From Thermoplasmatota archaeon (lineage in GTDB: Archaea > Thermoplasmatota > E2 > DHVEG-1): DNA of 64,000 nt. The stretch is from assembly GCA_016927555.1 (NCBI GenBank), contig JAFGML010000039.1, positions 9,839 to 73,838 of the forward strand, in the 5' to 3' direction. Positions 13,665 through 64,000 of the stretch are shown one piece after another; within the stretch, counting starts at the first letter, position 1, and every line of letters begins with the position of its first letter. Below the pieces are notes generated by a model. It did not search any database, had not been told where the DNA came from, and saw only the letters and a list, made by a program, of their open reading frames with translations. The translations under genes were made by a program, and so were the position numbers.

Positions 13665-16600
13665 GATTGCTTGCCTTTTCCGATATTGAAGATATAGAAC
13701 TCCAGCTGTCCACTGGAGCTGCTGTTCCCCTCCTCGTCGTAGACCTTTGTCTCCAGGGTGTGTTTGAGGAATGCTTGTTCGTTCCACTGCCAGAGTGCTG
13801 GGAATGTCGTGGTCTCCTCTTTCAATTGGCCATCGACGTAGAACTCTGCTCTGCTCAGACGCTCATCTGGTATGTGAATGCTCACGGGTCCAACGATGAC
13901 GGGTTTGAAGAAGGGGATGATCTTTCTGTTTTTGATGTAGAGAAAGCCATCGATGGTCACATGTTTGACTTTAAAGAAGAAGAGCAGTCCTCCAAGGGCA
14001 CCCAGCAGGCCGCCGAGTACAAACCACAGGAGGTTCTGTTCAGCAAAGCTTTTCTGTGGTGCTGGAACATAGCAGAAATAGAAGTAGATGACGGTTGAGG
14101 ACAGGAACTTGTTGCCTTGGAGGGATTGTGCATCTATCTCAAGAGGATAGGTTCCGTTCTCCAGGTACCCTGGGGGGGTGTAGGTGAACCGCATGTTGTC
14201 TGAGGTGGCGAGGTCAGAGACAATAGAGCTTGCGTTGAATGCTGCGTACATGATGAGAACCGGGGTGTTGTAGGTGATGGTTATCGTCGGTGTGTCTTTG
14301 TTGATGACACCACCATCAGCCGGGACAAACGTCACCGTGAGGTCTGGGTAGATGTCTGTGAAGACGAAGAAGTACTGTGTCTCAGGATCATCAAACACGT
14401 ATATTGTGTTGTCTTCTCGCCAGACGAACTCGTCTGCAATCGTCCTGTTTCCCGTGGTCACCTGCAACGTGGCATGAGGGTACAGGTCGGTGAGTTCAAT
14501 GTATATCCATCGGTCTTTCTCAACGATGACTTCAACGGTTGCTTGTTCGTCTTCAATAGTTGTTGAATTTATGATTCCTCTCAGGTGGTTAATGGGAAAG
14601 AGTTGGTCTGTTGTTGTGTTCCAGAAGAACTCTGGAATCGCATCGTCTCCAATGGACAGTAAGAAGAGGATGTTCCCGGTGAGATTCACCGGAGTGTCAT
14701 GAACGACAGTGAGCACGTTATTGGGGTCAACAAAGGTATCGACATTGCCGTCTGCATCCGCGTCATAGCAGTAGAACTGCTCTGATAAGGTGAGATTAAA
14801 CCGGGTGTTTATCCATGTCAGTTGAGACACTGGGATTTGGTGTTTGATGATGAGGATTACTGTTGCGGTCGTTGTATTTGTTCCTTGGTTTCCCTCGTTG
14901 TCAGTCACCGTGAGCGTCACGGTGTACGTCCCGTTCGAGTAGTAGACATGGGTCGGTGTACTCCCATTTGCCAACGCGCCATCGCCAAAACTCCAGGAAT
15001 AGTCCGTGATGGTTCCATCGAGGTCGAAGCATCCAGAGCCATTGAAGGTCATCTCTTGAAGCACGCAACCCTCGTATGGTCCACCGTGCTTTACGCGTGG
15101 GTTCTTGGTGTCATTTGAATTCCCTGCTACATCGGTTGCCGTGATGATACAGTACACTGTTGTTGGGTTTCCTTCAGGAACGATGACTTTTTCGTAGTAA
15201 TCATCGTCAACGACATCCATTGTTGCAGTGAGATGAGTGCCGTCTCCATACCAATATTCAATGGTGACGTTGTCTACTTCTGAGTCGTCGGTGATGGTGG
15301 CGCCAAATGTATAACTATTGGGGAGGGTGTCAAAGGATGGTCCGTACGTATCGACGAAAATTACCGGCGGTTGTGTGTCGGTGATGGTGACGGTTTTTGT
15401 TGCTGTTGTCGCATCGTTTCCCCATTGATCAGTGGCGTACACATGGTACGTCATGTCAGTGATGCTATGGGCGAGGGTCACAGTCCCCGTGAAATAGCTC
15501 CCTGCGCTATTGGTGAGTGAATAGTTCCCTCCGCTGTTCCCATGGCTCCAGACTGCGTAGACGCGAAGGTTGTCAGCACTGGCTTGGGTTGAAGTCACCG
15601 TCGTATTGAAGAGGTAGTCTGCTGATGGTGCAGCTGTCGTCGGTGAGTTGTCGGTGATGCTTGGTGGGTTTCCTGGTCGTATGGAAAAGGAATAGTTGGC
15701 GGAATGAGCCCAATTCCGTGGGTCCGTAGCAGTGATGTAGTAGGTGTAGTTGCCTGTTGGTGTAAAGATTCGTGTGTACTTGTAGGTGCTCCCTGTTTTG
15801 TTGGCTGTAATACTCACGTTACTGAGGACGCCACTGGGGGTGATGACATTCAGGTACACACCAGTGATAAAAGTATTATCAGTAATGGTGACAGATAGAT
15901 TCGTGTATTTCCCAAGGGTCTGTGAGCTTGGGGTCATCTGCGGTGTTCCTATGGAAGGGTCGATGGTATCGAGCAGTGCTCCTTTATCGGTGTTGACTGT
16001 GTAGATGGTGTACGGGCTGTCTGCGATGCCATCAGCGTTGCTGTCAAGTGCTCCTTCGCTGATTTCATCGTAGTCATCCCAGTAGTTCCCAGAGAGGTTT
16101 CCCCCACCGATGATATTTGTTCCAAGGGTCTTTGTGATATTCCATCTGTTGCGATTCAGGCTTTTATCAATCGCGTTGTCGCCATTATAATGCAGAAAGT
16201 TGTTGTAGATCACATTGCTAATCGCGAAGAAATCAAGGTAGATACCATACTGAGTGTTGTTGTTAATTTCATTGGTGTAGATGTAGTCGTTGGTGGAGTT
16301 ATACAAGCGTATTCCTGCAAGTCTGTTAAAGGACAGCGTGTTACTGGAGATGGTGTTGTTATCATCTGCGCTGAGGTACATCCCGTCTTTCCTGTTCGAT
16401 GTGATGGTGTTGCTCTGTATGGTGTTACTTGAGCCGACAACCATGATACCGTAGTTCGTGTTGCTCTGCACGATGTTTTCGTTGGAGATAACAGTCCAGC
16501 TGCAGTTTTCCAACACGATTCCTGAGTGGATGTTTCCATGCACTTGGTTTGTCGAAATCGTCGAGTAGTTGCTATAGTCATTGAGATAGATCCCGCAGCG

Positions 16601-17338
16601 TGAATTATAGGAACAGTTATTGTCCACAATGTAATTTGAATCACAGCTGCTGTTCAGGAAGATGCCATTGTCTGAATTCGAGCAAATGATATTATCATAG
16701 ATTTTATTGCTATCTGAGAAGTACAGGTACACCCCGTTTCCATTACCCGTCACTGTGTTATAGCTGATGTTGGTGTTACTCTGTGAGGTATTTAAATGAA
16801 TACCGTCTCCGATGTTGTCAGAGATGACGTTATCATAGATGAGGTGGTGATCAGAGTGGTTGAGGTAGATACCATGGTATCCGTCGGAGAACACATTATC
16901 TGTGATGATAGAGGAGTCACCGTTCATCCTGATGAGGCTGTCGTTCTGTGTAGTTCCTCCGTTGGTGATGGTGAAATGACTGATATTGACGTTATTTGCC
17001 AAGACCGTAATCACCGTATCTGCTCCGTCCCCGTTAATGACGGTGATACTGCGGTCTTCACCAAATAAATCGATACGGTGGGTAATCGTCAGATTCTCAT
17101 AGTAGGTACCATTGTACACAAATATTCGGTACCCATCTGATGCGTTGTCCAGTGCATCTTGAATGGTGGTGTACGTCTCTCCGGGTCCAACGTAGAACGT
17201 CGGTGGTGTGTCTGCTCGACAGCTATCTAAGTGTAGGAAATAGCCGATGCTTTGAACACAAAGTAGTATGACAACTACCACTAGTATGAATTGTCTGAGT
17301 TTCATCCCATCCTGATGCATATGTACTTGCATATGCAT
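13661..17338 (-). CDS. Large surface protein: signal peptide, NosD/pectate-lyase-like right-handed beta-helix, multiple Ig/PKD-like domains, TM helix, about 130-aa cytoplasmic tail
   Basis: 1225 aa. Likely true start at MKLRQF (coordinate about 17305). Beta-helix repeat signatures (NNIS.N.V.GN.NGIYL). PKD-like SWSFGDGALANGSTPTHVY. TM segment LLWFVLGGLLGALGGLLFFF. Confidence 0.8.
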   Translation of the reverse strand: MHMQVHMHQDGMKLRQFILVVVVILLCVQSIGYFLHLDSCRADTPPTFYVGPGETYTTIQDALDNASDGYRIFVYNGTYYENLTITHRIDLFGEDRSITVINGDGADTVITVLANNVNISHFTITNGGTTQNDSLIRMNGDSSIITDNVFSDGYHGIYLNHSDHHLIYDNVISDNIGDGIHLNTSQSNTNISYNTVTGNGNGVYLYFSDSNKIYDNIICSNSDNGIFLNSSCDSNYIVDNNCSYNSRCGIYLNDYSNYSTISTNQVHGNIHSGIVLENCSWTVISNENIVQSNTNYGIMVVGSSNTIQSNTITSNRKDGMYLSADDNNTISSNTLSFNRLAGIRLYNSTNDYIYTNEINNNTQYGIYLDFFAISNVIYNNFLHYNGDNAIDKSLNRNRWNITKTLGTNIIGGGNLSGNYWDDYDEISEGALDSNADGIADSPYTIYTVNTDKGALLDTIDPSIGTPQMTPSSQTLGKYTNLSVTITDNTFITGVYLNVITPSGVLSNVSITANKTGSTYKYTRIFTPTGNYTYYITATDPRNWAHSANYSFSIRPGNPPSITDNSPTTAAPSADYLFNTTVTSTQASADNLRVYAVWSHGNSGGNYSLTNSAGSYFTGTVTLAHSITDMTYHVYATDQWGNDATTATKTVTITDTQPPVIFVDTYGPSFDTLPNSYTFGATITDDSEVDNVTIEYWYGDGTHLTATMDVVDDDYYEKVIVPEGNPTTVYCIITATDVAGNSNDTKNPRVKHGGPYEGCVLQEMTFNGSGCFDLDGTITDYSWSFGDGALANGSTPTHVYYSNGTYTVTLTVTDNEGNQGTNTTTATVILIIKHQIPVSQLTWINTRFNLTLSEQFYCYDADADGNVDTFVDPNNVLTVVHDTPVNLTGNILFLLSIGDDAIPEFFWNTTTDQLFPINHLRGIINSTTIEDEQATVEVIVEKDRWIYIELTDLYPHATLQVTTGNRTIADEFVWREDNTIYVFDDPETQYFFVFTDIYPDLTVTFVPADGGVINKDTPTITITYNTPVLIMYAAFNASSIVSDLATSDNMRFTYTPPGYLENGTYPLEIDAQSLQGNKFLSSTVIYFYFCYVPAPQKSFAEQNLLWFVLGGLLGALGGLLFFFKVKHVTIDGFLYIKNRKIIPFFKPVIVGPVSIHIPDERLSRAEFYVDGQLKEETTTFPALWQWNEQAFLKHTLETKVYDEEGNSSSSGQLEFYIFNIGKGKQS

Positions 17339-33408: not shown

Positions 33409-33421
33409 ATGTCAAGACACC

Positions 33422-35672: not shown

Positions 35673-35728
35673 AGAGGTGTGTTAGAAGATTACGATATTT
35701 GAGCTTTTCTCCGTCCTATGGCGTCTTC

Positions 35729-36664: not shown

Positions 36665-36739
36665 AGTGCCGTATAATAGAAAACAGCCTTTATTACTTTA
36701 CTGGTTTTGCGTTGCGACCTTCTCGGAGGAGAAATTGTG

Positions 36740-49809: not shown

Positions 49810-50130
49810 CTACGCCTTCATGATTGCAAGCAGGAAGATCCCTAGTGCGATCAATGCTCCAACAACCGCACCAACGACGGCGACAACACCGTTAATCACC
49901 GTGCCGGTGAACTGGAGGATCTCCAGTGGAGGCATGCCCATGAAGCTGCTAAGCACATTGGCGCCCCAGAGGAAAATGACGCCGACGAGTAACCCAATGA
50001 TAATCAGGATTGCTCCGACTGCTCTGCTTTTCCCAGACCCAAAGTAGGCGGTAAAGATTCCTGCGATGATACTTGCGATGGCAAACACCAGCGTCATCAT
50101 GCTTAGAAAATATTGTGCTAATCCTTCCAT
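49810..50130 (-). CDS. Small Gly/Ala-rich membrane protein (3 TM)
   Basis: 106-aa hydrophobic ORF with glycine-zipper-like repeats (GVVAVVGAVVGALIALG). Confidence 0.35.
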   Translation of the reverse strand: MEGLAQYFLSMMTLVFAIASIIAGIFTAYFGSGKSRAVGAILIIIGLLVGVIFLWGANVLSSFMGMPPLEILQFTGTVINGVVAVVGAVVGALIALGIFLLAIMKA

Positions 50131-50144: not shown

Positions 50145-50399
50145 TTAAAATTTTGTTCCCGTGAGTGTTTTTGTATCAATCACTCCTTCAATAGACCGTA
50201 TCTTATTGACCACGATGTCCCCAAGGCTTTCGAAGTCATCTGCTTCGATTTTAGCGATGAGATCATATTCTCCAAAGAGTGGATGGAGTTCGATGATCTG
50301 AGGTACCTTGGAGAGCTTGTTGTAGACTTCATGTTCATGTGCGGGTGCAGCACTTATCAGGACAAAGCCTATTGCCATAAAGGTTACCTTCCTCGCCAC
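50145..50399 (-). CDS. Stand-alone Lrp/AsnC-type RAM (ligand-binding) domain protein
   Basis: 84 aa. VYNKLSKVPQIIELHPLFGEYDLIAKIEADDFESLGDIV matches the AsnC C-terminal fold pattern. No HTH. Confidence 0.6.
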   Translation of the reverse strand: MARKVTFMAIGFVLISAAPAHEHEVYNKLSKVPQIIELHPLFGEYDLIAKIEADDFESLGDIVVNKIRSIEGVIDTKTLTGTKF

Positions 50400-50680: not shown

Positions 50681-53600
50681 TTAGGAAGCGTGTTTTTTCC
50701 GACGGACAATAATCAGGATGGCAAGCAGGATGCTGATGGTGATCACTGCGAGGATGGTCAGCAGGACGGGGAGGAGAGCGAGGGTGGCTTGGGGTTCTGC
50801 TGTGCTGTAGGCTTGGAGTTGTCCGGTTTCTGCGTTGAAACGGTAGTCCCAGGTGGCGTCCCCATCTACATCGAGGAGGTACCACCCCTCTTCGAGGTTG
50901 ACGGCTGTGGAGAGGTTGTCGGTGGTGTGGTGGAAGGTGTCGTACACGGTGTCATCGTCGTCATCGGTGAGGTAGCCGAGTGCTCCGACGAGGAGAACAT
51001 CGATGAGCATGGTGCGTCCGATGGCTGTGGAGTTGCTGTGGTTGTCAGAGGCGGTGATGGTGATACTGTAGATCCCTGGGGCAGTCCAGCTGTGGGTGAC
51101 CGGTGCTGAGGTGTTGTTCTCATGGAAGTCGGTGATGGTGGTGGGGCTGCCGTCTCCCCAGTGGATGGTGTACTGAAGGTCATCGTCGTCCATGTCACTA
51201 GCGGTCACAAAGAAGGTGTAGAGGGTGTTGGTTGTGCCGTTGTAGGGTCCTTGGATGCGTGGTGCCTGTGGCGGTTGGTTTGCGGTTGTGGTGATGGTTG
51301 CGGTGGTAGTGTCCGTGTCGGTGGCACCATTGTTGTCTTTGACGGTGAGGGTGACGGTGAAGACTCCTGCGGTGAGGTAGCTGTGGGTGATGGTCTTTCC
51401 TGTACCTGTTGTCCCGTCACCGAAGTCCCAGGTGTACAGGACGATGGTCCCGTCATCTGAGCTGTATGAGCCGTTGAAGAGGATGGGTTGTCCGATGATG
51501 CCTTGGTAGGGTTCGCCTGCTGAGGCGTTGGCAGTGGGTGGATCGTTTGCCGGTGGTGGGTTGTTGCCTGGTGGGGCGCCTGAGTCTTGAATGAAGGTGA
51601 CGGTGACGGTTTTATCCTCTGTCATGTTGATGGTGGTTGGGTTGATGTTGTTATTATTTGTACCAATCCATGAGGCAAAGCTCCAGCCAGAATTTGGGAT
51701 GGCGGTGAGGGTGACTAGTGTACCATTTGTGTATGTTATTCGCTCTGGGTTCTTTGTCACTGTACCTGAGCCGGTTTGGGAGATGCTGAGGGTGAATTCA
51801 TTTTCTGTGAAGTTTGCGATAATGGTCATGTCATCGGTGATGGTGATGGTATCGGGGTTTGTGTTGCCGGTGTGGTCTCCTTCCCAGTGGTCGAAGCTCC
51901 ATCCGTTGACTGGTGTTGCAGTGAGTTCGACGACATCGCCGTAGTAGTAGGCGGGTTGGTTTGGGTTTTTGGTGACGATGCCGGTTCCAATAACTGTGAT
52001 ACTGAGTGTGTATTCGTTTTGTGTGAAGTGTGCGGTAACTACTTTGTTGCTGGTCATGGTTATTGTCGTTGGGTTCGTACTGCCAGATACATCTCCGCTC
52101 CAGTGATCAAAGCTCCAGCCTTGGTCAGGGCTGGCCGTGAGTTGTACCGTATCACCATACACATAGGTGGACTGGTCTGGGTTTTTGGCGACGGTCCCGC
52201 TGCCTTGAGCAAGGATGGTAAGTGTGTATTGGTTAATGGTGAATTCTGCGTCAACTACAGAGTTTCCTGTGATAGTGAGTGTTTGTGGGGTGACGGTGCC
52301 ACTGAGGGCTCCACTCCATCCAGTAAAGGTCGATCCAACTGAGGCGTTCGCCCAGAATTTGACTTTCGCGCCGTAGTAGTACGGCCCTGAGTTGTTCTTG
52401 TCAACAGTTCCCAAACCTGTTCCGCTGGTTGTGATGGCTAGTGTGTATGGGCCATTTAATGAGAAGTGTGCCGTGACTGCTTTGTTGCCATTCATGGTAA
52501 TGGTCGTGGGGTTGGCACTGCCAGATAAATCTCCACTCCAGTGATCAAAATGCCAACCGGTCATGGAGGTGGCAGTGAGTTGTACATCTTGTCCATACGT
52601 ATAGGTTGGTTGATTTGGATATTTGGTGATAGTTCCTGCTCCCGCTGGGTCGACGGTGATTCTAATGGTGTATTGGTTTTGGGTGAAGTGTGCGGTGAGT
52701 GCCATGTTTCCGGTGATCGTCAGAGACGACGGGTTGGCAGATCCGCTGAGGTCTCCGCTCCAGTGGTTGAAGCTCCAGCCAGGGTTTTCGTTTGCGGTGA
52801 TTTGTACAATCTGCCCATATGTGTAGGTAGCCTGATTTGGATTCTTTGTAATGGTCCCTGCTCCTGCGGGGTCGACGGGGGTCGTCAGGGTGTACTGGTT
52901 CTGAATGAAGTGTGCGTTGACGATTTTATTGCAATCCATAATGATGGTGGTAGGATTGTTCGTACCAGTGATGTTTCCGCTCCAGTGATCGAAGTGCCAG
53001 CCGGTGGCTCCGTTCGCAGTGAGCGTAACCTCTTGTCCATATAGGTAAGTTGCTTGGTCTGGATCTTTGGTGACAGTGCCTTGTCCATTGGTGTTGATGG
53101 TGAGGGTGTATTGGATAGCTGTGTAGGTTGCGCTGACAGTGATATCATCTGCTGGCATAGTGACAAAGGTGGATGCTAAGCTGGGGTCGTCGAGGTGCTG
53201 GATATCTCCTGTCCAGGTGTAGAAGATGTAGCCTGCAGGCGGGGTGTTCGCGGTAATGTTGATGGTTGTTCCTTGCGTGTACGAGCCACTGCCTGTCCCG
53301 TTGATGACGGTGAGGTGGTAGGTGGGTATTTGAGTGAAGTTTGCAGTGACCGTTATATTGTGGACGATGGTGATTGTGTCGGGGTTGGTGCTGCCGGTGA
53401 GGTCTCCGCTCCAGTGATCAAAGCTCCAGCCGGTTGCAGGAACTGCTGTTAGGGTCACTTCTTGTCCATAGGTGTAGGTTGTATAGTCTGGGTCTTTCAG
53501 GACTGATCCTGATCCTTGTATAGTAATGTCTAGGGTGTATCCCGTGTCTTGTGTGAAATTCGCAGTTACAACCTTGCTTCCGTTCATGCGAATGATTATT

Positions 53601-56600
53601 GGGTTTTGGCTACTGACAACATCTCCTGACCAGTGGTGGAAATGCCATCCGGTTGCTGGTGTTGCTGTGAGTCTGACGAGTTGCCCATAGGTGTAGGTGG
53701 GTTGGTCTGGTGTTTTTGTTACCGTTCCGAATCCAAGGATGTTGATGGTGAGGGTATACTGGTCTTGGGTGAAATGTGCGGTGACCTGCATATTACCATT
53801 AATAATGATAGTATTAGGATTGGTGGTGCCAGTGAGGTCGCCGCTCCAGTGATCAAACGTCCATCCGGCATTTGCGACTGCGGTGAGTTCGACAGTTTGT
53901 CCATAGATGTAGGTAGTTTGATTTGGGTCTTTAGTGATAATTCCTCCTCCAGATGGTTGTATAGAAGTGGAGAGAGTGTAGTGATTTTCTGTGAAGTTCG
54001 CGATAACAACTTTATCACAGGTCATCGTGATGCTGGTGGGGTTGGTGCTGCCTGTGAGGTTGCCACCCCAGTGATTAAATTGCCAGTGGAGAGCAGGGGT
54101 TGCCGTGAGTTGTACTACCTGTCCGTAGGTGTAGGTTGTGTAGTTGGGGTTCTTGGACACTGTTCCTTGTCCTTGTATGGTGATGTTAAGGTAGTACTGT
54201 GTCAGGGTGAATTCTGCGTTGACGTTGGTGTTGCCTGTAATGGTGAGAGTTTGTGGGGTGACTGTGCCGGTGAGTGCGCCGTTCCAGCCAGTGAAGGTCG
54301 ATCCAACTGAGGCGTTTGCCCAGAGTGTGACTTTCGCGCCGTAGTAGTAGGGTCCTGAGTTGTTCTTGTCAACAGTGCCTGAACCAGTACCACTTGTCGT
54401 GATGGTGAGAGTGTAGGGTCCGTTGAGGGTGAAGTGTGCGGTGACTGCTTTGTTGCCGTTGATGGTGATAGTGTTGGGGTTGGTGGTGCCGGTGATGTCT
54501 CCGCTCCAGTGGTCGAAATGCCAGCCGGTGGCCGCATTCGCAGTGAGGGTGACGACTTGCCCGTAGGTATACGTAGCTTGGTTTGGATTTTTTGTAATCG
54601 TCCCTGCTCCTGCGGGATTGACAGTTGTGGTGAGGGTGTATTGGTTTTGTGTGAAGTGTGCGGTGACTGCCATGTTCCCGGTTATCATCAGAGAGGTGGG
54701 ATTGGCTGATCCGCTGAGGTCGCCACTCCAGTGATCAAATTCCCATCCGGGGTCGACGTTCGCGGTGAGTTGAACAATCTGCCCGTACGTGTAGGTAGCC
54801 TGATTTGGATTTTTCGTTATGGTTCCTGCTCCTACCGGGTTGACAGTGGTAGTCAGGGTGTACTGGTTCTGGGTAAAGTGTGCAGTGACTGTTTCATTCC
54901 CATCCATGGTAATTGTCGTGCTCGCTGCAGTTGGATGTGTCACGTCACCTGTCCAGTGGTCAAAACTGTAGCCCGCGAAAGGTGTGGCGCTCAGTGAGAC
55001 TATGGTTCCTTGTAGGTAGGTATGGCTACCGACAGCAGGGGTTGTTGTTCCTCCTTGTACGGGGTCAGCAGCAATGCTCAGGATGTAGTAAGTTGGTGTG
55101 GATCCTACGACTTCATCGACGCCGATGTCTGGTCCTGCTCCTTGTGGCACTGCGTCACCGTCGATATCTTCGGTGATTATCTGGATGATGGTGCCGTTGT
55201 CAATGGCTGGTGAGCCAGCAATCAGATGGTAGTCATGGGTTGAAGGATCAACAAAGAGCGGGTCACCGACGATGTACTCTGTTCCGATGTATCCTTGTCC
55301 GGAGTAGAGGTAGTTGAAAAGATTATGGTCAACTTCCAGGTCAACAGCGTAATTATTGTAGATAGATGGTTCTGTTTTCCCAGGACCATAATAGAAGATG
55401 TTGTTTTTCACCCGTGCAATCTGTGGACCATTGAGGAAGATGTCGTCTTCATTGATGTTGGCAAAGACGTTGTTGTAGATGTATCCGTTTTTATTCATGG
55501 CAACAGAAATTCCACCTGGTAAATCGTAGAGGATGTTGCCGTAGACATAGTTGGTGTCCTTGTAGGCGCATATCCCGGGGAGTCCTAGGTCTCCAGTGCT
55601 GGTATTGGCGGTGAGGATGTTGTACCGTACGGTGATTTCCGAGCCGTGTTGGAGATAGAGGACAGCACCTCCCTCTCCATCGGAGCGCGGGGAGACGCAG
55701 TAGTTGTGCTCAAAGATTCCGGTGGTGAAGTAGGGGACGCCACCGGTGTTTGAGATGAAGCAGAACTTACAGCCGGTGAAGGATCGGTCAAGGATGTTGT
55801 GGTGGATGAGAAAGTCGCTGTGACGTCCCGCAAGCTGGATGCTGTCACCAGGTGCGATTGCGTTGGTTGGTGAGACGAAGAAATCAAGGTTCACTCGATA
55901 GATGTTACAGTAGCCGACTTCAACGTTGTTCGTATGTTGTATGTAGATGCCGTCTTCAGCGATGTCATGGATAGTACAGTTCAATACTTTTATGTCGACG
56001 GAGATGAGATTGGCAAAGGCGTGTATGATGCGAACACCGTTGTAGAAGCCGTCTATTTCACAGTTCTCAAAGAGCAGGTGTTCACAGCGGATGTTGGAGT
56101 ACCAGTGACGAGTGAAGAATAATCCGCCGGTTCCCTTGTTGGTGGAGTTGAGGTGCAGGTCTCGGACCGTGATGTATCGGGAGGCAGATCCACTGATAAT
56201 GCCCTCAGAGTGAGACGAGGTGATGAGTGGTCGGTCCCCGGTTCCGTACGCACCAAAGGTGATGTACTTCTTGTAGTTGAGGACGATGCGGTGTGAGATT
56301 GAGCAGGTGGTGCCTCGTTTTTGCAGGTAGGTGTACCCATCTTGGTATGAGGTGATGTCTGCCCAGGTGTCAAAGGGGTGGGCAAATGACCCATCTTCCT
56401 CTGGGTCGTTGCCATTCTCTGGGTCGATGTAGATGGTTTGTCCTTGGGGTTGCGTGGGGTCGAAGTAGTAGACACCGATGATAATCTGATCATCGTCATT
56501 GGCGTGCAGTGGGTTGATGGTAATCGTGGTCTGTGGGAGGTTGGGTTCTATGATGTCTTCCATGGCGTAGAGTGCTGTCCACTGGTCAAACACAGTGCCT

Positions 56601-59600
56601 GCTGGTGCCGGGTTAGCGGTGATGGTGACGAGGTCACCGTCATAGTAGAACCCACTGCCGGTTCCATCGTTGACGATGAGTTCATATTGATCACCGGTTC
56701 CTTGTGTGTAGGTCGCGGTGACGCTGACATCGTCTGCTGGCATGGTCGCAAAGGTGGATGCTGAGGTGGGGTCGTCGAGGTGTTGGATGTCTCCTGTCCA
56801 GGTGTCGAAAGTATAACCCGCAGGAGGTGTGTTTGCGACAATGGTAACAATGGTTCCTTGAACGTAATTTCCGCTTCCTGAACCACTGTTGACTGTAAGA
56901 AGGTAGGTTGTTGCAGTCTGGTAGGTTGCTGTCACTTGGATGTTTTGAGCAGGCATGGTGACCGTGGTTTCTGCCGCGCTGGGGTCATCCAGGTACTGTA
57001 TGTCTCCGCTCCAGAGAGAAAAGATTTGTCCAGCGGGTGCGGAATCTGCAGCGATGGATACGATTGCTCCTTGTGAGTAGGTCCCGCTGCCTGTCCCGTT
57101 GATAACGGTGAGTTGATACGTGGGTGTGTTCATGAAATGAGCAGTGATGGTTGTATTGCTGGTGATGGTGATTTGCTCTGGGTTTGTAGTTCCACCAAGG
57201 TCACCTGACCAGTGACTGAACGCCCAGCTGGAATCAGGGATGGCCGTGAGCTCAACTACATCACCAGAGTGATAGGTTGGTTGATCAGGGCTAACAATGA
57301 CTGATCCTGCGCCATCAATAGAGATGGAAAGTGTGTATTGTTCTTGAGTGTTCTGCGACAGATTAAGTATCTGGGCATCTGTCAACGAAACATCATATAA
57401 GGAGAATTCATCAAGTACGCCATCTAGGTAATAATTTGCAATTTTTCCTAAGAAGAGGTCGGAGACCTGCTCGATGAAGAGAGCACCGCCTGATCCAGCG
57501 TTGAACATGGGTTGGAGTTGTCCATCAACAAAGATCTGATAGTTGCCTGTTCCCTCGTTGAACCGTGCGGCGATGTGATGCCAACCAGCGTCAAAGGTAC
57601 TTCGGGTAAACGTCCGGTAGTAGGGTGCAGGATCACCGCTTAAGACAGAAATGGTTTCATCACCGATGTAGTTGGAGCAGTCTCCTATCATCATGTTTCC
57701 ATCACGAGCATCTGTGAGGAACCGTACAATGGGTTGGTGATCATTGCTGTTGACAATTGGACCAACATTGGCCCAGAACGCTATGGATTTTACCTCAAAT
57801 TGATTCAGACCACTTGCTTCAATGTAATCGTCGATACCGTCAAATGAAATCGCACCACCACTTACTCCTTCTACCCTGAGTGCATTTCCGTTGATGATGC
57901 CATTGAATCCATTGCCTGATTGATCAATGACTGTGTTACCACTTGCTTCGTTGAAATTATAATACAGAACAACACCACTCGGTGGTGGTGGTAAATCAGT
58001 GTAGGTCGCTGTGACTGCAATGTTAGTCGCAGGCATGGTCACCGTGGTGCTTGCTGCGTTGACATTTGCGACATAGGGTGCACCAGTGCCGGTCCATTGG
58101 TCGAAGATCTGTCCGGCGGGAGGTGCATTGGCGACGATGGAGACAACCGTTCCTTGGGCGTAGCTTCCCGATCCTGTGCCACTGTTGACTGTGAGTACAT
58201 ATGTGATTTGTGTGAAGTTTGCGATAACAACTTTGTTACAGGTCATCGTAATGCTGGTGGGGTTTGCAGTCCCTGAGGTGTTGCCGCCCCAGTGGTTGAA
58301 AATCCAACCCGGGTCTGCTGTTGCGGTGAGTTGGACGACATCGCCGTAGACATACGTTGAATAATCTGGGTTCTTCGTCACCGTCCCACTGCCATGGATG
58401 ACAACGATGAGTGTGTACTGTTGTAGTGTGAAGTGTGCGGTAATGGTCTTGTTGCTGTCCATGATAATTGTGTCTGGGTTGGTGCTACCTGAGAGATCTC
58501 CACTCCAGTGATTAAACTGCCATCCTGGAGCTGCTACTGCTGTGAGTTCCACACTCGTACCACTTGGGTACTGTGGGAGGTCAGGATTAATGAGGACAGA
58601 GCCTTGTCCGTCCGTTGCAATAGATATTGTATAAATGGATGGGGTGCTGACGTCAACTTCATCGACTCCGATTTCAATGGGTCCATTTGAGCCGACGATG
58701 TCCCCGTCGAAATCCATGATGACGCCATCGATTTCGATTTCTGGTATGTAGAGTCCATTGCCGATTGCCGCAGATGTAGTGCTTATATGGAAGTCATTAT
58801 CGATGAACTCTGGGTCCCCTATGAAATCATTGGCGTCGAGGGGGTAGTGAGGTGTTCCTCCTTGTTCGATGCGGTTGGGGAAATCATAGGCGAAGAGGTT
58901 GTGTCCAACGTCACAGGATTCTGGTGTCCGTAGGATAACCGGGAAGGTTCTGCCTGGTGGGTAGTTGAAGATGTTGTTACTGATTACACTGCGTTCGCCT
59001 GGTTGCAGTGGTTGACTGCCGAAGCAGAACAGGCCGTACCACTGTCGGTCGCAGAGCCGCATGTTGAACACGTTGTTTGTACAGATGACTCGCGTGGGGT
59101 ACATGAAGGCGATGCCATCGGGGAAGTTGTCAAAGGTGTTGTAGTACACCTCAAGACCGCCGAACATCTGTCCGACGCCGCCAACAAGGTCATCTGGTTG
59201 GTCATTGTAGAATCTGTTGTAGCGTATGATGATGTTGGAGCCAGGGCTGATGTAGATGACGGCGCAGCCATCGCTGGGTTCTCCTGGTGGGTCGATGTCA
59301 TCGAAGGGTGGGTACATAGTGTTGCGCTCGACGATTCCTGTTGCTCCTTGGTTGACGTTTCCAGCGGTACCGTAGATGAAGCAGAATTTGTTTGCGGTAT
59401 CTCGTCTGTCGAAGGTGTTGTTATGGACGTGGAACCCGTCGCATAGTCCGATCATGTGGACACAGTCACCAGAGGAGTAGTCCTGGTAGGTCCAGGGTGC
59501 CTCCCATTCTTGGTTCACATGGTGGATGTAACAGCCGCCGATTTCGACGTTTTGTACGTCAATCATGAAAATACCGTCGTCATCAGTGTTGTAGATGTCA

Positions 59601-62600
59601 CAATTGAGCACTGATAAATCAGAGTAGCCAGCCGGGTTTTGATCGGATGGAAGCATTCGAATGCCGTTGAATGCTGTGGCTCGCACGTTTCCGTTGTCAT
59701 CAGAGGGGAGGAGCAGTCCATGGATTTCACAGTTTTCGATGTGGATGTGACCTGAGGGTAAGAGTGGATCAGCCATCCAGGTGATTTTGATAATGCCGGT
59801 CATAGTGTCATCTAGTGTGCTGGTGGCAATGAGATGGAGGTTTTTCACCGAGAGGTACTGGATGTGTCCACCGCCGATGAGCTTGTCACCACTGGATGAT
59901 TGGAGAATAGGTCGATCTCCTGTGCCGTACGCATCTAAGGTGACACCATAGCGGTCACTGAGATGCAGGTTCGATGAACCAAGGTCACACGTAGTGCCTC
60001 GTTTTTGGAGGTAGGTGGTGTTGTCTTGGAAGGACACATCGGTCCATGAGTCATAGGGGTGAGCAAGCGACCCGTCTTCTAAGGGATCGTTTTGGTTGGT
60101 CGGGTCGATGTAGACGATGTTTTCATTACCCGTACCACCACTGTATTCATAGGGTCCGATATCCCGTGCATCTCCCTGAGGAACAGGAACTCCATCTAAA
60201 TCGTTGTCTAATGCCTCTGGGTACTCGATTCCTTGGTCGATAGCGTTCAGTGAATCTGCAGTTAAGTGATAATCAGGCACATCGGGATGAAATAGATTTG
60301 CAAAACGACAGTAATCCTCGAAAACCTGTGGATCATCTGAATAGAGTTCAATGTTATTCTGCATCTGTACGCCAGCGCTATTCATCACGAGAAATGTGCC
60401 TTGCGGCATGAGAAAGATATTGTTTCTCAGATACGTTGGTAAATTCCCTGCGCTCATTAAGTAATATCTATCGCCAAACTGCTTGTAGCGGAAGAGGTTG
60501 TTGTTGACTTCTTTCAGGGACGGGCCATTCATAGCCACATAACCAAAGTTGTCAAAGATGTTGTATGAGATAATGGTATGGTCGTTCTCAGAGTTTATCT
60601 GTCCTATCGCTACCTCATCTGTGACTGGGACTTGCTGGCCGTTTGTCAGGGTGACTGTCTGCGGATGTCCTCTGTTAATAGCGGTGTTTCCATAGAATTC
60701 GAATCTCTCGATGTCGCCGTTGACGTAGATGAGATTCGATGAAGCTTCAGGGCATACCGTTGGGAAATACGACGGAGGATACATCGTGTTGTATCTTACG
60801 ATTCCTAGGGTGGCTTTCAATGTCGATGATGCTGTCCCGCCAGATATAAACGTAAATTTATTTCCGGTTCCTCTCTTGTCAAGAGTGTTGTTCTCAACAA
60901 GAAAGTGGTCTGTCCTGAGAATATGAATACAATTTGCCCCAGTTGCAATAACTGGATTGTTCAACCATTCCTGGTTGACATCATGAATGTAGCATCCTCG
61001 AATCTCTACTACGTCCCATAAGACTTCATAATTGGATTTACAGAAGATACCACTATCACTCTGATGATGGATGTCACAATCCTCAATGTATAAATGACTT
61101 GCAGCAGCGTTGGGTTGCGTTGGGTAGACTTCAGCATCAATACCCATCCAACCTCCTATGATCTCACAGTCTCTCACATAAATGTACGACGTCGTACCAG
61201 TACCCGTTGCTGTAATATAGAGGGGGCCATAGCCTGCTCCTGTAGGCATTTCAAGTTTATACCCACTGATTTCTATATGCTGTGAATTCTCAAACCGGAA
61301 CACACAAGAATTATCCACATTCTGAGTCAGATGTGGTCTATCGCCAGTACCGTACGTTGCGATGGTAACATTTACTTTATTGACCACTGAGATGAAGTAT
61401 GAAAGAGCTTCAAAGGTGCCTCGTTTCATGAGGTAGATGGTATTGCTTTGTATCGTTACATCAGTCCACGAGTCATAGGGATGTTGGGGAGATCCGTTTT
61501 CATCAGGATCGTTGACGTTCGTCGGGTCAATATAAATAATACCTGCTGTTCCTAGTTGTTCATACGTAGCTGTGACGATGAGATTTTGTGCAGGCATGGT
61601 CACAAAGGTGTCTGCTGAGCTGGGGTCATCAATGTATTGGGTATCACCGGTCCATTGATTAAACAGATAACCAGATGGTGCTGGGTCTGCAGAAATAAAA
61701 ACAATGGTTCCTGGGAGATACGAGCCATCTCCATTTCCATTTTCTACGGTGAGGTTATAGCTGATTGGTGCTGAGCCGTTGTACTCATCAGGTCCAATAT
61801 CGTAGCCGTATCCTTGAGGAATGGTATCTCCATCGATGTCAAAGAGAATTCCAACGTCAGTTCCGTTATCGATCGCCGGACTTGGCGACTGAATATGAAA
61901 ATCTCCACTAGTTATATCGACAAAATTTGGATTTCCAATTTGACTATTTGTCTCGCCACTCAGGGTTGTATCACTGTGGGTGTTCAGATAGAGGTTATGA
62001 CTTGCGGTAAGTGTCGTGCCACCATTGATATCAATGATGTTATCGCCAGGTTGATTCATGAAGATATTATTTTTTAGTTCCATATTGCTATTTGCAGAGG
62101 TTATGAACCGTTTCCCTGGGGCCGCATTATAGAAAACATTGTTGTAGTAGAATCCGTTACCCCATCCTGAAAACTCAGTGTTATCGTCAACACCACCTTC
62201 AATGGTGTTGCCATAGACATAGTAATACTGGTCATGGTTGTATTGGGGGTGATTCGCATCAGCGGTTTGAATGCAAATGCTTTTGTTGTTCGGCGCAAAA
62301 AATTGGTTGTAGCGGATGATCATATCACCATAGTAATGGCACACTGCAAATAATCCTGCGTTGCCACCTCCCTCAGTCGATGGCCCACTCACTGAATTAT
62401 ATTCAAACACTAACCCTTGAGCAGGGTCAGGGCCTGTGGCTTGTACAATGACGACGAACTTATTGCTGGTATCTGTTTTATCTAAAATATTGTGATGAAT
62501 GTGAAGCCCCTCATAATTATTCACCTGAAGATTATCTCCAGTACAGGAGTACGGATCTCCGCCAGGTAACTGGGGGCAGATGCCGCACCCTCCATCGAGA

Positions 62601-64000
62601 GTATAGGTATGCCATCGTTGATTGACTGCATAGACATGGTTGTAGGCAAACTCAACGTCATCAACAGCGTTGATAAACACTCCATCTTCTCTGATGTTGG
62701 AGATTTCATTGCCAATGATTTTGATATTCACGATATCTCCGTACTCTGACCCTAGTATGCGTATGCCATTGAACGGGCCTTTTGCTGGATTATTTACCTC
62801 GGAGCCATGGATCTGAGAATGGTAAATGGTAATATTACTTGCTATGTGACTTCCACTCCAATAGTTATGGACATATAGATTCCCTGTGCGTGAATCTCCT
62901 TGAATGATCAAATCAGCAATGACAACGTTTGTTGAACCATCGATATTAATAGGGGTGTGGGTGTTAGGATCTCCTGGTTCTTCGAAATAGAGTAATTTTG
63001 GGCGGGGTAGCGATTCATTCCCATACGCCCCAATTAAAACGTGATCTATCCGCCGAGGCGAGATTTGATAGGTTACTGTAGTTTCAGTTCCTCTTCGTTG
63101 CAAATACGCAGTATTACTATCAAGCAGATACGCATCGCTATACTGGTCATACGTGCCAACGTCGTCCCAGGAATTGTAGGGGTTCTCTTGGCTACCGTCA
63201 CCACCATCAGGCTCATCTGGGTCTATGTAGAAAATAGCTCCATTCTGTGCATAGTAATCCAAGTTGTAATCTAATGGAGGCATACCGTTTGGCCCTGGAG
63301 GAGCAGAGCTGTTCTCAAATGTTGCTTCGACGGAAATTGGAAATGCAGGCATCGTTACATTGGTTGATGAGGAATATACATTGGAGACATACTCAATATC
63401 CCCTGCCCATTGTTCAAAGACGTATCCTGCTGGCGAGGCATCTGCGCTAATGGAAATAACAGTCCCTTCTTCATACGTACCGCTTCCTGAGCCGTTGATG
63501 ACTGTTAATTGGTAGGTTGGGGCTGGTGTGCCAACCGGCGTGTTCATATCTGTGAGAATCTCGCTTTGTGGTAATGCATAGTTGTAGACTCTCACCTCAT
63601 CGATGGCACCGTTGTAGTACTCACCCCAGCTCAGTGAGGCTCCGATGTAGAGGGGATCATTACTAGTGGTAATCGTACCGGTGAGTGCTGCACTGTTTTT
63701 GAGCACACCGTTGACGTAGACTTTTAGTGTTTGTCCATCGTAGGTGGTTGCAATATGCGACCATTGGTTCAAAGGTAAACCGGTTGAGTCGAAGATTTGA
63801 GTACCAGGGTTCAAACCACCACCCGGTGCATAGCTATATGATGAAGTGCTAGCGGCATACAAATAATATTTACCGGTAGGGTCTTTCAATACTGCTGGTT
63901 TCCAGCCTTGGATGTTGGTGGGTCGTACCCATGCTTCGAGGGTCATGCCTGTTGTGAGATCTAAGCTGACTGAGTCAGCAATAGAGACGTAGGAATTTGA
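50681..64000 (-). CDS. Giant surface protein (at least 4,439 aa, 5' end outside window): LamG-like, 4 beta-helix modules, about 25 InlB-B-like Ig repeats, PKD domains, C-terminal TM anchor
   Basis: Track ORF is 4421 aa from the Met at 63946. The frame stays open through 63947-64000 (…SNSYVSIADSVSLDLTTG-MTLEAWVRPT), so the true start is upstream. LamG-like TLEAWVRPT...IDEVRVYN. Four modules begin IYIDP(T/E)N.NDP.EDGS.HPYDSW. Repeats show Y.LT....G.G.V.K.P....Y.YG..V.LTA....GW.F.HWSGD..G..NP..I.M. PKD signature YTWDFGDGTTGTG. C-terminus LLPVLLTILAVITISILLAILIIVRRKKHAS. Confidence 0.9.
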   Translation of the reverse strand, partial: SNSYVSIADSVSLDLTTGMTLEAWVRPTNIQGWKPAVLKDPTGKYYLYAASTSSYSYAPGGGLNPGTQIFDSTGLPLNQWSHIATTYDGQTLKVYVNGVLKNSAALTGTITTSNDPLYIGASLSWGEYYNGAIDEVRVYNYALPQSEILTDMNTPVGTPAPTYQLTVINGSGSGTYEEGTVISISADASPAGYVFEQWAGDIEYVSNVYSSSTNVTMPAFPISVEATFENSSAPPGPNGMPPLDYNLDYYAQNGAIFYIDPDEPDGGDGSQENPYNSWDDVGTYDQYSDAYLLDSNTAYLQRRGTETTVTYQISPRRIDHVLIGAYGNESLPRPKLLYFEEPGDPNTHTPINIDGSTNVVIADLIIQGDSRTGNLYVHNYWSGSHIASNITIYHSQIHGSEVNNPAKGPFNGIRILGSEYGDIVNIKIIGNEISNIREDGVFINAVDDVEFAYNHVYAVNQRWHTYTLDGGCGICPQLPGGDPYSCTGDNLQVNNYEGLHIHHNILDKTDTSNKFVVIVQATGPDPAQGLVFEYNSVSGPSTEGGGNAGLFAVCHYYGDMIIRYNQFFAPNNKSICIQTADANHPQYNHDQYYYVYGNTIEGGVDDNTEFSGWGNGFYYNNVFYNAAPGKRFITSANSNMELKNNIFMNQPGDNIIDINGGTTLTASHNLYLNTHSDTTLSGETNSQIGNPNFVDITSGDFHIQSPSPAIDNGTDVGILFDIDGDTIPQGYGYDIGPDEYNGSAPISYNLTVENGNGDGSYLPGTIVFISADPAPSGYLFNQWTGDTQYIDDPSSADTFVTMPAQNLIVTATYEQLGTAGIIYIDPTNVNDPDENGSPQHPYDSWTDVTIQSNTIYLMKRGTFEALSYFISVVNKVNVTIATYGTGDRPHLTQNVDNSCVFRFENSQHIEISGYKLEMPTGAGYGPLYITATGTGTTSYIYVRDCEIIGGWMGIDAEVYPTQPNAAASHLYIEDCDIHHQSDSGIFCKSNYEVLWDVVEIRGCYIHDVNQEWLNNPVIATGANCIHILRTDHFLVENNTLDKRGTGNKFTFISGGTASSTLKATLGIVRYNTMYPPSYFPTVCPEASSNLIYVNGDIERFEFYGNTAINRGHPQTVTLTNGQQVPVTDEVAIGQINSENDHTIISYNIFDNFGYVAMNGPSLKEVNNNLFRYKQFGDRYYLMSAGNLPTYLRNNIFLMPQGTFLVMNSAGVQMQNNIELYSDDPQVFEDYCRFANLFHPDVPDYHLTADSLNAIDQGIEYPEALDNDLDGVPVPQGDARDIGPYEYSGGTGNENIVYIDPTNQNDPLEDGSLAHPYDSWTDVSFQDNTTYLQKRGTTCDLGSSNLHLSDRYGVTLDAYGTGDRPILQSSSGDKLIGGGHIQYLSVKNLHLIATSTLDDTMTGIIKITWMADPLLPSGHIHIENCEIHGLLLPSDDNGNVRATAFNGIRMLPSDQNPAGYSDLSVLNCDIYNTDDDGIFMIDVQNVEIGGCYIHHVNQEWEAPWTYQDYSSGDCVHMIGLCDGFHVHNNTFDRRDTANKFCFIYGTAGNVNQGATGIVERNTMYPPFDDIDPPGEPSDGCAVIYISPGSNIIIRYNRFYNDQPDDLVGGVGQMFGGLEVYYNTFDNFPDGIAFMYPTRVICTNNVFNMRLCDRQWYGLFCFGSQPLQPGERSVISNNIFNYPPGRTFPVILRTPESCDVGHNLFAYDFPNRIEQGGTPHYPLDANDFIGDPEFIDNDFHISTTSAAIGNGLYIPEIEIDGVIMDFDGDIVGSNGPIEIGVDEVDVSTPSIYTISIATDGQGSVLINPDLPQYPSGTSVELTAVAAPGWQFNHWSGDLSGSTNPDTIIMDSNKTITAHFTLQQYTLIVVIHGSGTVTKNPDYSTYVYGDVVQLTATADPGWIFNHWGGNTSGTANPTSITMTCNKVVIANFTQITYVLTVNSGTGSGSYAQGTVVSIVANAPPAGQIFDQWTGTGAPYVANVNAASTTVTMPATNIAVTATYTDLPPPPSGVVLYYNFNEASGNTVIDQSGNGFNGIINGNALRVEGVSGGAISFDGIDDYIEASGLNQFEVKSIAFWANVGPIVNSNDHQPIVRFLTDARDGNMMIGDCSNYIGDETISVLSGDPAPYYRTFTRSTFDAGWHHIAARFNEGTGNYQIFVDGQLQPMFNAGSGGALFIEQVSDLFLGKIANYYLDGVLDEFSLYDVSLTDAQILNLSQNTQEQYTLSISIDGAGSVIVSPDQPTYHSGDVVELTAIPDSSWAFSHWSGDLGGTTNPEQITITSNTTITAHFMNTPTYQLTVINGTGSGTYSQGAIVSIAADSAPAGQIFSLWSGDIQYLDDPSAAETTVTMPAQNIQVTATYQTATTYLLTVNSGSGSGNYVQGTIVTIVANTPPAGYTFDTWTGDIQHLDDPTSASTFATMPADDVSVTATYTQGTGDQYELIVNDGTGSGFYYDGDLVTITANPAPAGTVFDQWTALYAMEDIIEPNLPQTTITINPLHANDDDQIIIGVYYFDPTQPQGQTIYIDPENGNDPEEDGSFAHPFDTWADITSYQDGYTYLQKRGTTCSISHRIVLNYKKYITFGAYGTGDRPLITSSHSEGIISGSASRYITVRDLHLNSTNKGTGGLFFTRHWYSNIRCEHLLFENCEIDGFYNGVRIIHAFANLISVDIKVLNCTIHDIAEDGIYIQHTNNVEVGYCNIYRVNLDFFVSPTNAIAPGDSIQLAGRHSDFLIHHNILDRSFTGCKFCFISNTGGVPYFTTGIFEHNYCVSPRSDGEGGAVLYLQHGSEITVRYNILTANTSTGDLGLPGICAYKDTNYVYGNILYDLPGGISVAMNKNGYIYNNVFANINEDDIFLNGPQIARVKNNIFYYGPGKTEPSIYNNYAVDLEVDHNLFNYLYSGQGYIGTEYIVGDPLFVDPSTHDYHLIAGSPAIDNGTIIQIITEDIDGDAVPQGAGPDIGVDEVVGSTPTYYILSIAADPVQGGTTTPAVGSHTYLQGTIVSLSATPFAGYSFDHWTGDVTHPTAASTTITMDGNETVTAHFTQNQYTLTTTVNPVGAGTITKNPNQATYTYGQIVQLTANVDPGWEFDHWSGDLSGSANPTSLMITGNMAVTAHFTQNQYTLTTTVNPAGAGTITKNPNQATYTYGQVVTLTANAATGWHFDHWSGDITGTTNPNTITINGNKAVTAHFTLNGPYTLTITTSGTGSGTVDKNNSGPYYYGAKVTLWANASVGSTFTGWNGALTGTVTPQTLTITGNTNVNAEFTLTQYYLNITIQGQGTVSKNPNYTTYTYGQVVQLTATPALHWQFNHWGGNLTGSTNPTSITMTCDKVVIANFTENHYTLSTSIQPSGGGIITKDPNQTTYIYGQTVELTAVANAGWTFDHWSGDLTGTTNPNTIIINGNMQVTAHFTQDQYTLTINILGFGTVTKTPDQPTYTYGQLVRLTATPATGWHFHHWSGDVVSSQNPIIIRMNGSKVVTANFTQDTGYTLDITIQGSGSVLKDPDYTTYTYGQEVTLTAVPATGWSFDHWSGDLTGSTNPDTITIVHNITVTANFTQIPTYHLTVINGTGSGSYTQGTTINITANTPPAGYIFYTWTGDIQHLDDPSLASTFVTMPADDITVSATYTAIQYTLTINTNGQGTVTKDPDQATYLYGQEVTLTANGATGWHFDHWSGNITGTNNPTTIIMDCNKIVNAHFIQNQYTLTTPVDPAGAGTITKNPNQATYTYGQIVQITANENPGWSFNHWSGDLSGSANPSSLTITGNMALTAHFTQNQYTIRITVDPAGAGTITKYPNQPTYTYGQDVQLTATSMTGWHFDHWSGDLSGSANPTTITMNGNKAVTAHFSLNGPYTLAITTSGTGLGTVDKNNSGPYYYGAKVKFWANASVGSTFTGWSGALSGTVTPQTLTITGNSVVDAEFTINQYTLTILAQGSGTVAKNPDQSTYVYGDTVQLTASPDQGWSFDHWSGDVSGSTNPTTITMTSNKVVTAHFTQNEYTLSITVIGTGIVTKNPNQPAYYYGDVVELTATPVNGWSFDHWEGDHTGNTNPDTITITDDMTIIANFTENEFTLSISQTGSGTVTKNPERITYTNGTLVTLTAIPNSGWSFASWIGTNNNNINPTTINMTEDKTVTVTFIQDSGAPPGNNPPPANDPPTANASAGEPYQGIIGQPILFNGSYSSDDGTIVLYTWDFGDGTTGTGKTITHSYLTAGVFTVTLTVKDNNGATDTDTTTATITTTANQPPQAPRIQGPYNGTTNTLYTFFVTASDMDDDDLQYTIHWGDGSPTTITDFHENNTSAPVTHSWTAPGIYSITITASDNHSNSTAIGRTMLIDVLLVGALGYLTDDDDDTVYDTFHHTTDNLSTAVNLEEGWYLLDVDGDATWDYRFNAETGQLQAYSTAEPQATLALLPVLLTILAVITISILLAILIIVRRKKHAS
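52250..58850 (-). repeat. Tandem array of about 270-bp (about 90-aa) InlB-B-like Ig-domain repeats within the giant gene (approximate bounds)
   Basis: Recurring peptide pattern HFTQNQYTLTTTVNP.GAGTITKNPNQATYTYGQ with a 91-aa spacing. DNA-level similarity between copies is visible (for example cagggtgtactggttctg, gcggtgactgctttgttgcc recur). Confidence 0.8.

Follow-up and report, generated by a model that had tools for sequence, protein, structure and literature searches.

Adhesin-like proteins (ALPs) have been described from the archaea Methanomassiliicoccales, Methanimicrococcus, Methanobrevibacter and Methanosphaera (PMC9723798, PMC11532034); a beta-helix combined with repeats and a membrane anchor is typical of those of methanogens (PMC11532034), and archaeal proteins with Flg_new repeats have been interpreted as adhesin-like (PMC9723798). 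Among the giant repeat-stalk adhesins, an RTX adhesin of Aeromonas reaches 5,047 amino acids (aa) (PMC12077191). Here we analysed a 64,000-nucleotide (nt) stretch of DNA from a Thermoplasmatota archaeon (contig JAFGML010000039.1 of GenBank assembly GCA_016927555.1, forward-strand positions 9,839 to 73,838; hereafter the window), in which the last 13.3 kb hold the 3' part of a minus-strand gene for a modular protein of 5,253 aa, referred to below as the giant. A further case of a giant surface protein is Halomucin of Haloquadratum, with 9,159 aa.

Like the ALPs, the giant combines a right-handed beta-helix with numerous small repeats of the all-beta type and with a membrane anchor at one terminus, next to which basic residues lie, and for both of them adhesion is a deduced function. 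Unlike the ALPs, it has four helices and 27 repeats and is much larger, it also contains LamG domains and an unannotated head domain, and its host is an unclassified Thermoplasmatota genome; it is anchored C-terminally, whereas methanogen ALPs are mostly anchored N-terminally. With the RTX adhesins it shares the size class and the use of a long run of small beta domains to extend ligand-binding modules, but the repeats are of the Big/BIg type in those adhesins and B-repeats here, secretion and anchoring differ, and the polarity, judged by the position of the anchor, is reversed. The giant is a very large addition to the known archaeal adhesin-like surface proteins. We consider it fairly probable that it is a membrane-tethered protein of the cell surface directed at glycans, a reading that draws on the structural relatives of its beta-helices, on the company that its domains keep in other proteins and on its single C-terminal membrane helix.

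A single reading frame in an archaeal chromosome

The minus-strand frame runs from 64000 to 50681 through 4,439 sense codons to one terminal stop without interruption, which by our own arithmetic (~3 stops per 64 codons) would occur by chance with a probability of ~1e-93; plus-strand open reading frames (ORFs) within 50681-64000 are short shadows, none longer than 225 aa. When a profile of the beta-helix module was searched with HMMER against 1.84 billion cluster representatives, the top match was a protein of 5,253 aa (P0146), which an exact look-up identified as GenBank MBN1281141.1, encoded on a contig of 96,427 nt and with the record name 'InlB B-repeat-containing protein'. The window frame is 100% identical to its last 4,439 residues. 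The gene therefore starts 814 codons (2,442 nt) past the window end and the window holds its 3' 85%, in agreement with the earlier note, made from the letters of the window, which had described a frame of more than 13.3 kb with its 5' end outside. The Met at 63946, which that note had seen to be preceded by in-frame sense codons, is internal, and the residues upstream of it match residues 815-832 of MBN1281141.1. No frameshift or split of the frame was seen, and the independently deposited GenBank protein is identical. Residues are numbered below from the window edge, so that 814 is added to obtain full-protein numbers; the full length is known from the protein record alone. This record forms a singleton cluster and derives from one metagenome-assembled genome of an unclassified Thermoplasmatota archaeon. 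The protein was thus already in GenBank under an automatic name, and is recognisable as an adhesin-like protein, though an unusually large one.

Within the window the frame encodes two LamG domains, four paralogous beta-helix modules, 25 repeats, two PKD domains and one transmembrane helix followed by RRKKHAS (Table 1). This bears out the earlier description of a single giant gene that is modular, has domains of extracellular type, PKD domains included, and codes for a membrane anchor at the C-terminus. In a search with the N-terminal 760 aa, LamG hits dominated and the protein itself was not recovered; the LamG domains have hundreds of homologues (45-54% identity) in secreted multi-domain proteins. 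More generally the relatives of the domain families found here are extracellular, carrying signal peptides, type IX secretion system (T9SS) tails, dockerins or SLH domains.

The window is otherwise an ordinary archaeal chromosome, with genes for an archaeal CCA-adding enzyme, LonB, an archaeal NMN adenylyltransferase, geranylgeranyl reductase, four UbiA prenyltransferases and ArgRS, as well as an MMPL transporter, a threonine synthase-like pyridoxal phosphate enzyme (ThrC), PdxS/PdxT and class I FBA, of which PdxS/T, ThrC and FBA lie adjacent; no tRNA was found, and no Rfam family in 49-64 kb. An assembly artefact, either a collapse or concatenation of paralogs or a Bacteroidota-type gene joined to an archaeal contig, was weighed against this setting. 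In favour of an artefact are the gene's richness in repeats and its origin in a metagenome-assembled genome, the T9SS tails on the proteins most closely related to its helix, type-B repeat and head modules, and a G+C content that dips to 0.44-0.45 at 60-64 kb, compared with ~0.50 elsewhere in the window. However, a single frame stays open through all junctions and the anchor is a plain transmembrane helix, not a T9SS domain. The repeat copies are only 60-83% identical in DNA, with one short two-copy tandem array detectable; at this divergence the collapse of paralogs that the earlier note had raised as a possible objection is unlikely. Furthermore, the synonymous codon usage of the giant follows that of the housekeeping genes in the window (r=0.74, and 0.82 for the other surface genes), whereas that of Bacteroidales genes with the same helix domain does not (r=-0.03). 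This match marks the giant as a resident gene and led us to reject a chimeric contig, and an artefact of any of these kinds is extremely improbable.

The beta-helix modules and their relatives

The profile of the helix family finds exactly four domains in the giant, the number given in the earlier note. The modules are paralogous over the whole ~470 aa (26-40% identity), and each is flanked directly by B-repeats or by the next helix. The best-conserved part of the entire domain is the YIDP…HPYDSW segment, which is its N-terminal cap. Nearly identical caps had been described for all four modules; this holds for modules 2-4, with the pattern IYIDP(T/E)N.NDP.E(D/N)GS..HP(Y/F)D(S/T)W(T/A)D, but not for module 1, in which the cap has diverged (FYIDPDEPDGGDGSQENPYNSWDDV). 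Pfam Beta_helix (PF13229 clan) gave 73.7 bits on the giant, and the C-terminal ends of helix modules matched the choice-of-anchor Q model (NF041518) in three stretches with 60.8 bits against a cut-off of 25, the best stretch (aa 2920-2961) lying at the end of module 4.

Module 3 was modelled with AlphaFold2 (AF2), giving a predicted local distance difference test score (pLDDT) of 82.5 and a predicted template-modelling score (pTM) of 0.89, and shows an all-beta coil pattern of ~35 short strands with an Asn ladder. A Foldseek search with this model returned 76 PDB matches at E<=1e-3, and the best 50 of the 76 were all carbohydrate-active beta-helix enzymes or tailspikes. The nearest neighbours were GH136 lacto-N-biosidases, led by 7v6i with a query-based TM-score (TMq) of 0.67 (E 1.5e-9) and followed by 7v6m, 5gqc and 6kqs (E 1.5e-9 to 1.2e-8 for the four); next came a PL9 pectate lyase, a rhamnogalacturonan lyase, a PL6 chondroitinase, alginate lyases, the HK620 tailspike, the AlgE4 epimerase and RbmB. 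Searched against PDB sequences, the family profile also gave matches that include the N-terminal cap to 6kqs (E 1.9e-8) and 7v6i (E 8.4e-8), and a further match to 9rx2, an unnamed 'parallel beta-helix repeat protein' (E 3.8e-12). The helix family is thus distantly related to GH136 (LnbX, BsaX, TnX and ErLnb136), with which it shares the cap (Y-V/I-x…DG…P…YL/LL..G…I.AYG.G.KPLI), but identity to those enzymes is only 12-16%, and the residues conserved within this family are placed earlier along the helix.

Every structural relative of the helix acts on polysaccharides, and for this reason recognition of a glycan is favoured and its cleavage is conceivable. Besides the Asn ladder, D187, N208, D223, D241 and K248 are conserved at 93-98% in 133 non-self domains. 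All five are intact in modules 1, 3 and 4, whereas module 2 has S187 and A222-N223 (D187->S, G222-D223->A-N). We read this set as a probable ligand or active-site groove, and module 2 as a presumably degenerate copy of it. As a side observation, module 2 (60125-61558, minus strand) would provide a natural dead or re-specialised version of the domain.

These data also bear on the alternative of a purely structural or adhesive fibre, in which the helices, LamG and PKD domains would bind partners or build a sheath without any cleavage, and the polar positions conserved in the helices would make up a site for binding, not for catalysis. Such a fibre would fit the loss of two signature residues tolerated in module 2, the identity of just 10-16% to solved enzymes and the fact that GH136 catalytic residues were not identified in the modules, as well as the usual naming of archaeal beta-helix/Flg_new proteins as adhesin-like (PMC9723798, PMC11532034). 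It fits less well with a list of significant structural neighbours in which every entry is a glycoside hydrolase, polysaccharide lyase, epimerase or tailspike depolymerase, and with an Asp/Asn/Lys set kept at such levels in domains of very different architectures, a pattern that suits chemistry better than it does an adhesion that varies. On this evidence a fibre of that kind appears rather unlikely. Catalysis by the helix modules, considered by itself, is doubtful. The family, with more than 2,000 cluster representatives and a sharp signature, is without a characterised member, and the giant offers four comparable copies, one of them degenerate.

The earlier note had gone further and proposed that the cap segment also opens the two other large surface proteins of the window (1..1841 and 13661..17338), as part of a recurrent, exchangeable cassette. 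A cassette common to the three proteins was ruled out by the motif regular expression, which fails in both; by the family profile, which found the four domains of the giant among the 128 ORFs of the window and none elsewhere, even at E<=10; and by Pfam, which assigned both proteins to NosD/DUF1565 plus PKD. Their starts read STIYVDD…HPYETITDAL and TFYVGPGETYTTIQDAL. What remains of the proposal is a recurrent, shuffled module, present in four copies here and in many proteins elsewhere. Both of these neighbours are on the minus strand and have signal peptides in addition to their NosD/DUF1565 beta-helices and PKD domains; in the 1,225-aa surface protein of the window the transmembrane helix is followed by ~110 further residues, an anchoring unlike that of the giant.

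Beyond the window, numerous secreted proteins of multi-domain build contain the helix domain together with its cap. The family comprises 2,175 cluster representatives at E<=1e-30, mostly in proteins with T9SS sorting tails. In Bacteroidales/Lentimicrobiaceae the domain follows directly after the signal peptide or after cadherin-like repeats, usually ahead of a type IX secretion tail. For example, P0148 consists of a signal peptide, a helix, four type-B repeats, a second helix, cadherin repeats and a secretion tail, and P0150 of a signal peptide, the unannotated head domain of the giant, FN3 and two helices. Such Bacteroidota T9SS cargo (for example P0148, P0150 and the loci L001-L019) has in common with the giant the helix domain with its cap (IYIDPTN.ND..ENG…HP(Y/F)DSW.D…YLQKRGT), type-B B-repeats, PKD, the head domain and the choice-of-anchor-Q-type end. 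It has a signal peptide, a Por_Secre_tail and one or two helices in 500-2,100 aa, whereas the giant has four helices, its anchor is a plain transmembrane one and its codon usage is archaeal. The archaeal giant is therefore re-using module combinations that are also found in bacterial secreted proteins.

Stalk, head domain and membrane anchor

The earlier note had counted about 25 Ig-like repeats. The number was right: a profile built from the giant's own repeats finds exactly 25 units in the window, and the full protein has 27. The label was not, as the repeats belong to the InlB B-repeat/Flg_new_2 families, matching PF18998 (990 bits, 24 stretches, E=0), PF09479 (60 bits) and TIGR02543 (67.7 bits, four stretches) above the curated cut-offs. 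The InlB B repeat, the founding member, has a solved structure that is beta-grasp-like (PMC8900821). An AF2 model of a B-repeat (pLDDT 97.5) has six strands; neither this model, searched against the PDB with Foldseek, nor the repeat profile, searched against PDB sequences, gave a significant match. An immunoglobulin (Ig) fold is unsupported, with none of the Ig-family Pfam models matching the repeats and Ig/FN3 chains scoring poorly against the B-repeat model in Foldseek (TM-score 0.25-0.41, probability 0.04-0.28). The role of the repeats is nevertheless likely to be that of rigid spacers, the same as the Ig-like label would imply.

Two flavours of B-repeat are present: type A, of ~74 aa (YTLTI..G.GTV.K.P…GW.F.HWSGD), builds the stalk next to the membrane, and the shorter type B (TYQLTVINGTGSG.Y…PAGY.F..W.GD) lies mostly beside the helix and LamG modules. 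In an identity matrix, stalk units 2-4 and 11-13 share 86, 76 and 84% aa identity, which indicates an old duplication of a three-unit block; the remaining stalk pairs are 22-76% identical.

The 814 residues outside the window contain an acidic N-terminus, a third LamG domain, a Cys-rich stretch, two more B-repeats and a conserved domain of ~260 aa, called the head domain here (P0146 aa ~360-615, some 600-1,360 nt past position 64000 of the window). It is marked by the invariant motifs HTSHG, WSWC, MTGH, DFAD.E, CAHS and LKG.AAW.LWARLAGW. Its homologues number more than 500 (38-47% identity); frequently they are stand-alone proteins of ~290 aa or fusions to T9SS tails, to dockerins or to SLH domains. 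Neither a single sequence nor a 31-sequence profile found a relative in Pfam, NCBIfam or the PDB. The domain looks like an unannotated family of extracellular enzymes.

The sole strongly hydrophobic segment in the 5,253 aa is that at aa 4405-4432, which is followed by RRKKHAS. As the earlier note had also recorded, there is no PGF-CTERM-type motif: PGF, PEF and VPXXXP are all absent before the C-terminal helix (…TAEPQATLALLPVLL…IIVRRKKHAS), and the NCBIfam CTERM, LPXTG and T9SS sorting models do not match the giant, in which the Por_Secre_tail of its relatives is likewise missing. Anchors of the PGF-CTERM, LPXTG or T9SS type were rejected on these grounds. The positively charged tail after the only hydrophobic helix points to an N-out, C-in orientation.

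The earlier note had taken the giant and its relatives as probably the dominant cell-surface component or adhesin, sharing a cassette with other proteins of the locus, and the giant as a likely substrate of the nearby clan CD peptidase; on this view it would be an S-layer-like component of the envelope. A Peptidase_C25 gene is indeed present in the window (4221..6473), and a beta-helix and PKD occur in all three large proteins. The peptidase, however, is 44 kb away behind ~30 unrelated housekeeping genes, and the giant has no cleavage or sorting motif; the other two proteins, of the NosD/DUF1565 type, are missed by the helix profile; nothing indicates dominance, and an architecture without a relative above 50% identity is unlike that of a core envelope protein. 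This view is very improbable, and a functional link between the giant and the C25 peptidase was discarded, the only fact in its favour being their presence in the same 64-kb window. In its own right, the C25 protein (gingipain family, minus strand) has a propeptide and a PKD domain and is encoded in an archaeal genome, and its family, like the helix module, is best known from Bacteroidota.

In the arrangement we propose, a native chromosomal gene encodes a 5,253-aa protein that would be tethered by its single C-terminal transmembrane helix, with the RRKKHAS tail in the cytoplasm and the whole remainder extracellular. Closest to the membrane, the two PKD domains and 16 tandem InlB-type B-repeats would form a passive stalk tens of nanometres long. 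The distal working end would comprise the four GH136-related beta-helices, the three LamG domains (two of them in the window) and the ~260-aa head domain, with short B-repeats serving as spacers between these modules. Most likely, the working modules would recognise an extracellular polysaccharide or other glycan on particles or on other cells, and its cleavage by three of the four beta-helices is also possible. A more enzymatic version sees in the protein an 'enzyme string' tethered to the membrane, with three active GH136-related depolymerase modules and an unannotated enzyme head on the stalk, which the archaeon would have assembled from modules otherwise typical of Bacteroidota T9SS cargo and would export without a recognisable signal peptide; this version is unlikely.

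Several observations count against a surface protein directed at glycans. The annotated N-terminus (MIGSGQTTSTETQQESIVMSDLRT…, aa 1-90) is acidic and has neither a signal peptide nor a hydrophobic segment, whereas classic leaders are obvious in the two other surface proteins of the window, so that the export of a 5,200-aa ectodomain is left unexplained by the available sequence; either the start has been mis-called or split off by an upstream error, or export is unusual. As regards cleavage, the acid/base and nucleophile of GH136 are an Asp pair, D568/D575 in ErLnb136 (PMC7335108), which is not mappable onto the modules; the HMMER alignments to 6kqs take in 245-453 plus two short stretches, 489-522 and 604-641, with an ambiguous coil register. 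GH136 also requires a helical partner, LnbY or a GH136-I domain (PMC7335108), and, in a check confined to the modules and their flanks, no LnbY-like partner was found beside them, nor any helix of at least 4 residues in the module model. In addition, because the protein is a singleton, conservation across relatives is unusable as evidence.

If a glycan-directed surface protein is the correct interpretation, an uncultured Thermoplasmatota archaeon has put ~16 kb of coding sequence into one surface protein, and attachment to particles or cells, or foraging for polysaccharides, would be a major part of its lifestyle; the sharing of working parts with secreted bacterial proteins would then reflect module exchange between bacteria and archaea. 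It is worth noting that metagenome-assembled genomes commonly encode giant adhesin-like proteins and that neither the helix nor the head family is surprising in kind. Of greater interest are the uncharacterised helix family related to GH136, the head domain that has no annotation and the absence of a signal peptide.

Coordinates and neighbouring genes

The features of the giant within the window are listed in Table 1. The composition of the gene is uneven, with a G+C content at third codon positions of 0.48 in the part with LamG and helices 1-3 and 0.57 in the stalk repeats, and parts of the gene may differ in age or origin. The linker after the PKD domains resembles, though only weakly, what follows PKD in the 1,225-aa surface protein.

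Table 1. Features of the giant within the window, from the N-terminal to the C-terminal side (aa, window residue numbering; HMM, hidden Markov model)
Feature	Position	aa	Strand	Basis
C-terminal 4,439 codons and stop of the 5,253-codon gene	50681..64000		-	Open frame; identity to MBN1281141.1
LamG/concanavalin-A-like lectin domain, N-terminal side cut by window edge	63551..64000	1-150	-	Pfam Laminin_G_3, best stretch aa 2-148, E 1.6e-41
B-repeat, short type B variant (TYQLTVINGSGSGTY…)	63308..63523	160-231	-	Local repeat HMM, 56.8 bits; alignment
Beta-helix module 1, diverged cap FYIDPDEPDGGDGSQENPYNSWDDV	61790..63253	250-737	-	Family profile, 427 bits; alignment
B-repeat type B, spacer between modules 1 and 2	61553..61780	741-816	-	Local repeat HMM, 57.8 bits
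Beta-helix module 2, cap intact	60125..61558	815-1292	-	Family profile, 495 bits; alignment
Beta-helix module 3, chosen for structure model	58643..60136	1289-1786	-	AF2, Foldseek, family profile
Three B-repeats	57992..58642	1787-2003	-	Local repeat HMM
Second LamG in the window	57353..57976	2009-2216	-	Laminin_G_3, 2 stretches; boundaries from sequence
Four B-repeats, last truncated	56501..57346	2219-2500	-	Local repeat HMM
Beta-helix module 4, choice-of-anchor-Q-type end	55097..56455	2516-2968	-	Family profile, 509 bits; Pfam Beta_helix E 1.7e-12
Membrane-proximal stalk, 16 tandem B-repeats	51584..55096	2969-4139	-	Local repeat HMM; alignment
Two PKD domains	51026..51547	4152-4325	-	Pfam PKD_4 E 1.7e-30, 2 stretches
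Acidic post-PKD linker	50789..51025	4326-4404	-	No Pfam or NCBIfam match
Transmembrane helix ATLALLPVLLTILAVITISILLAILIIV	50705-50788	4405-4432	-	Sole hydrophobic peak in 5,253 aa
Basic tail RRKKHAS	50684-50704	4433-4439	-	Coordinates from sequence
Stop codon	50681-50683		-	Translation

Directly downstream of the giant and on the same strand lies a gene for a 77-aa stand-alone Lrp/AsnC ligand-binding protein (50145..50378, minus strand; E 4e-16), followed by one for a hydrophobic small membrane protein of 106 aa without a Pfam match (49810-50130, minus strand). Further away, a dense isoprenoid/lipid cluster (26719-37417) contains the four UbiA paralogues, the geranylgeranyl reductase, a phytoene-desaturase-family oxidoreductase and a carotenoid-biosynthesis-family protein. 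At 27584-30784 (minus strand) a protein of 1,066 aa is encoded, which has a signal peptide and, at its C-terminal end, a hydrophobic region of multiple helices; it gave no significant family match, with weak transthyretin-like/CarboxypepD_reg hints. Finally, the protein encoded at 22971-24023 (minus strand), of 350 aa, has a domain of the bactofilins (E 2.7e-10), a polymer-forming cytoskeletal family, here in an archaeal context.

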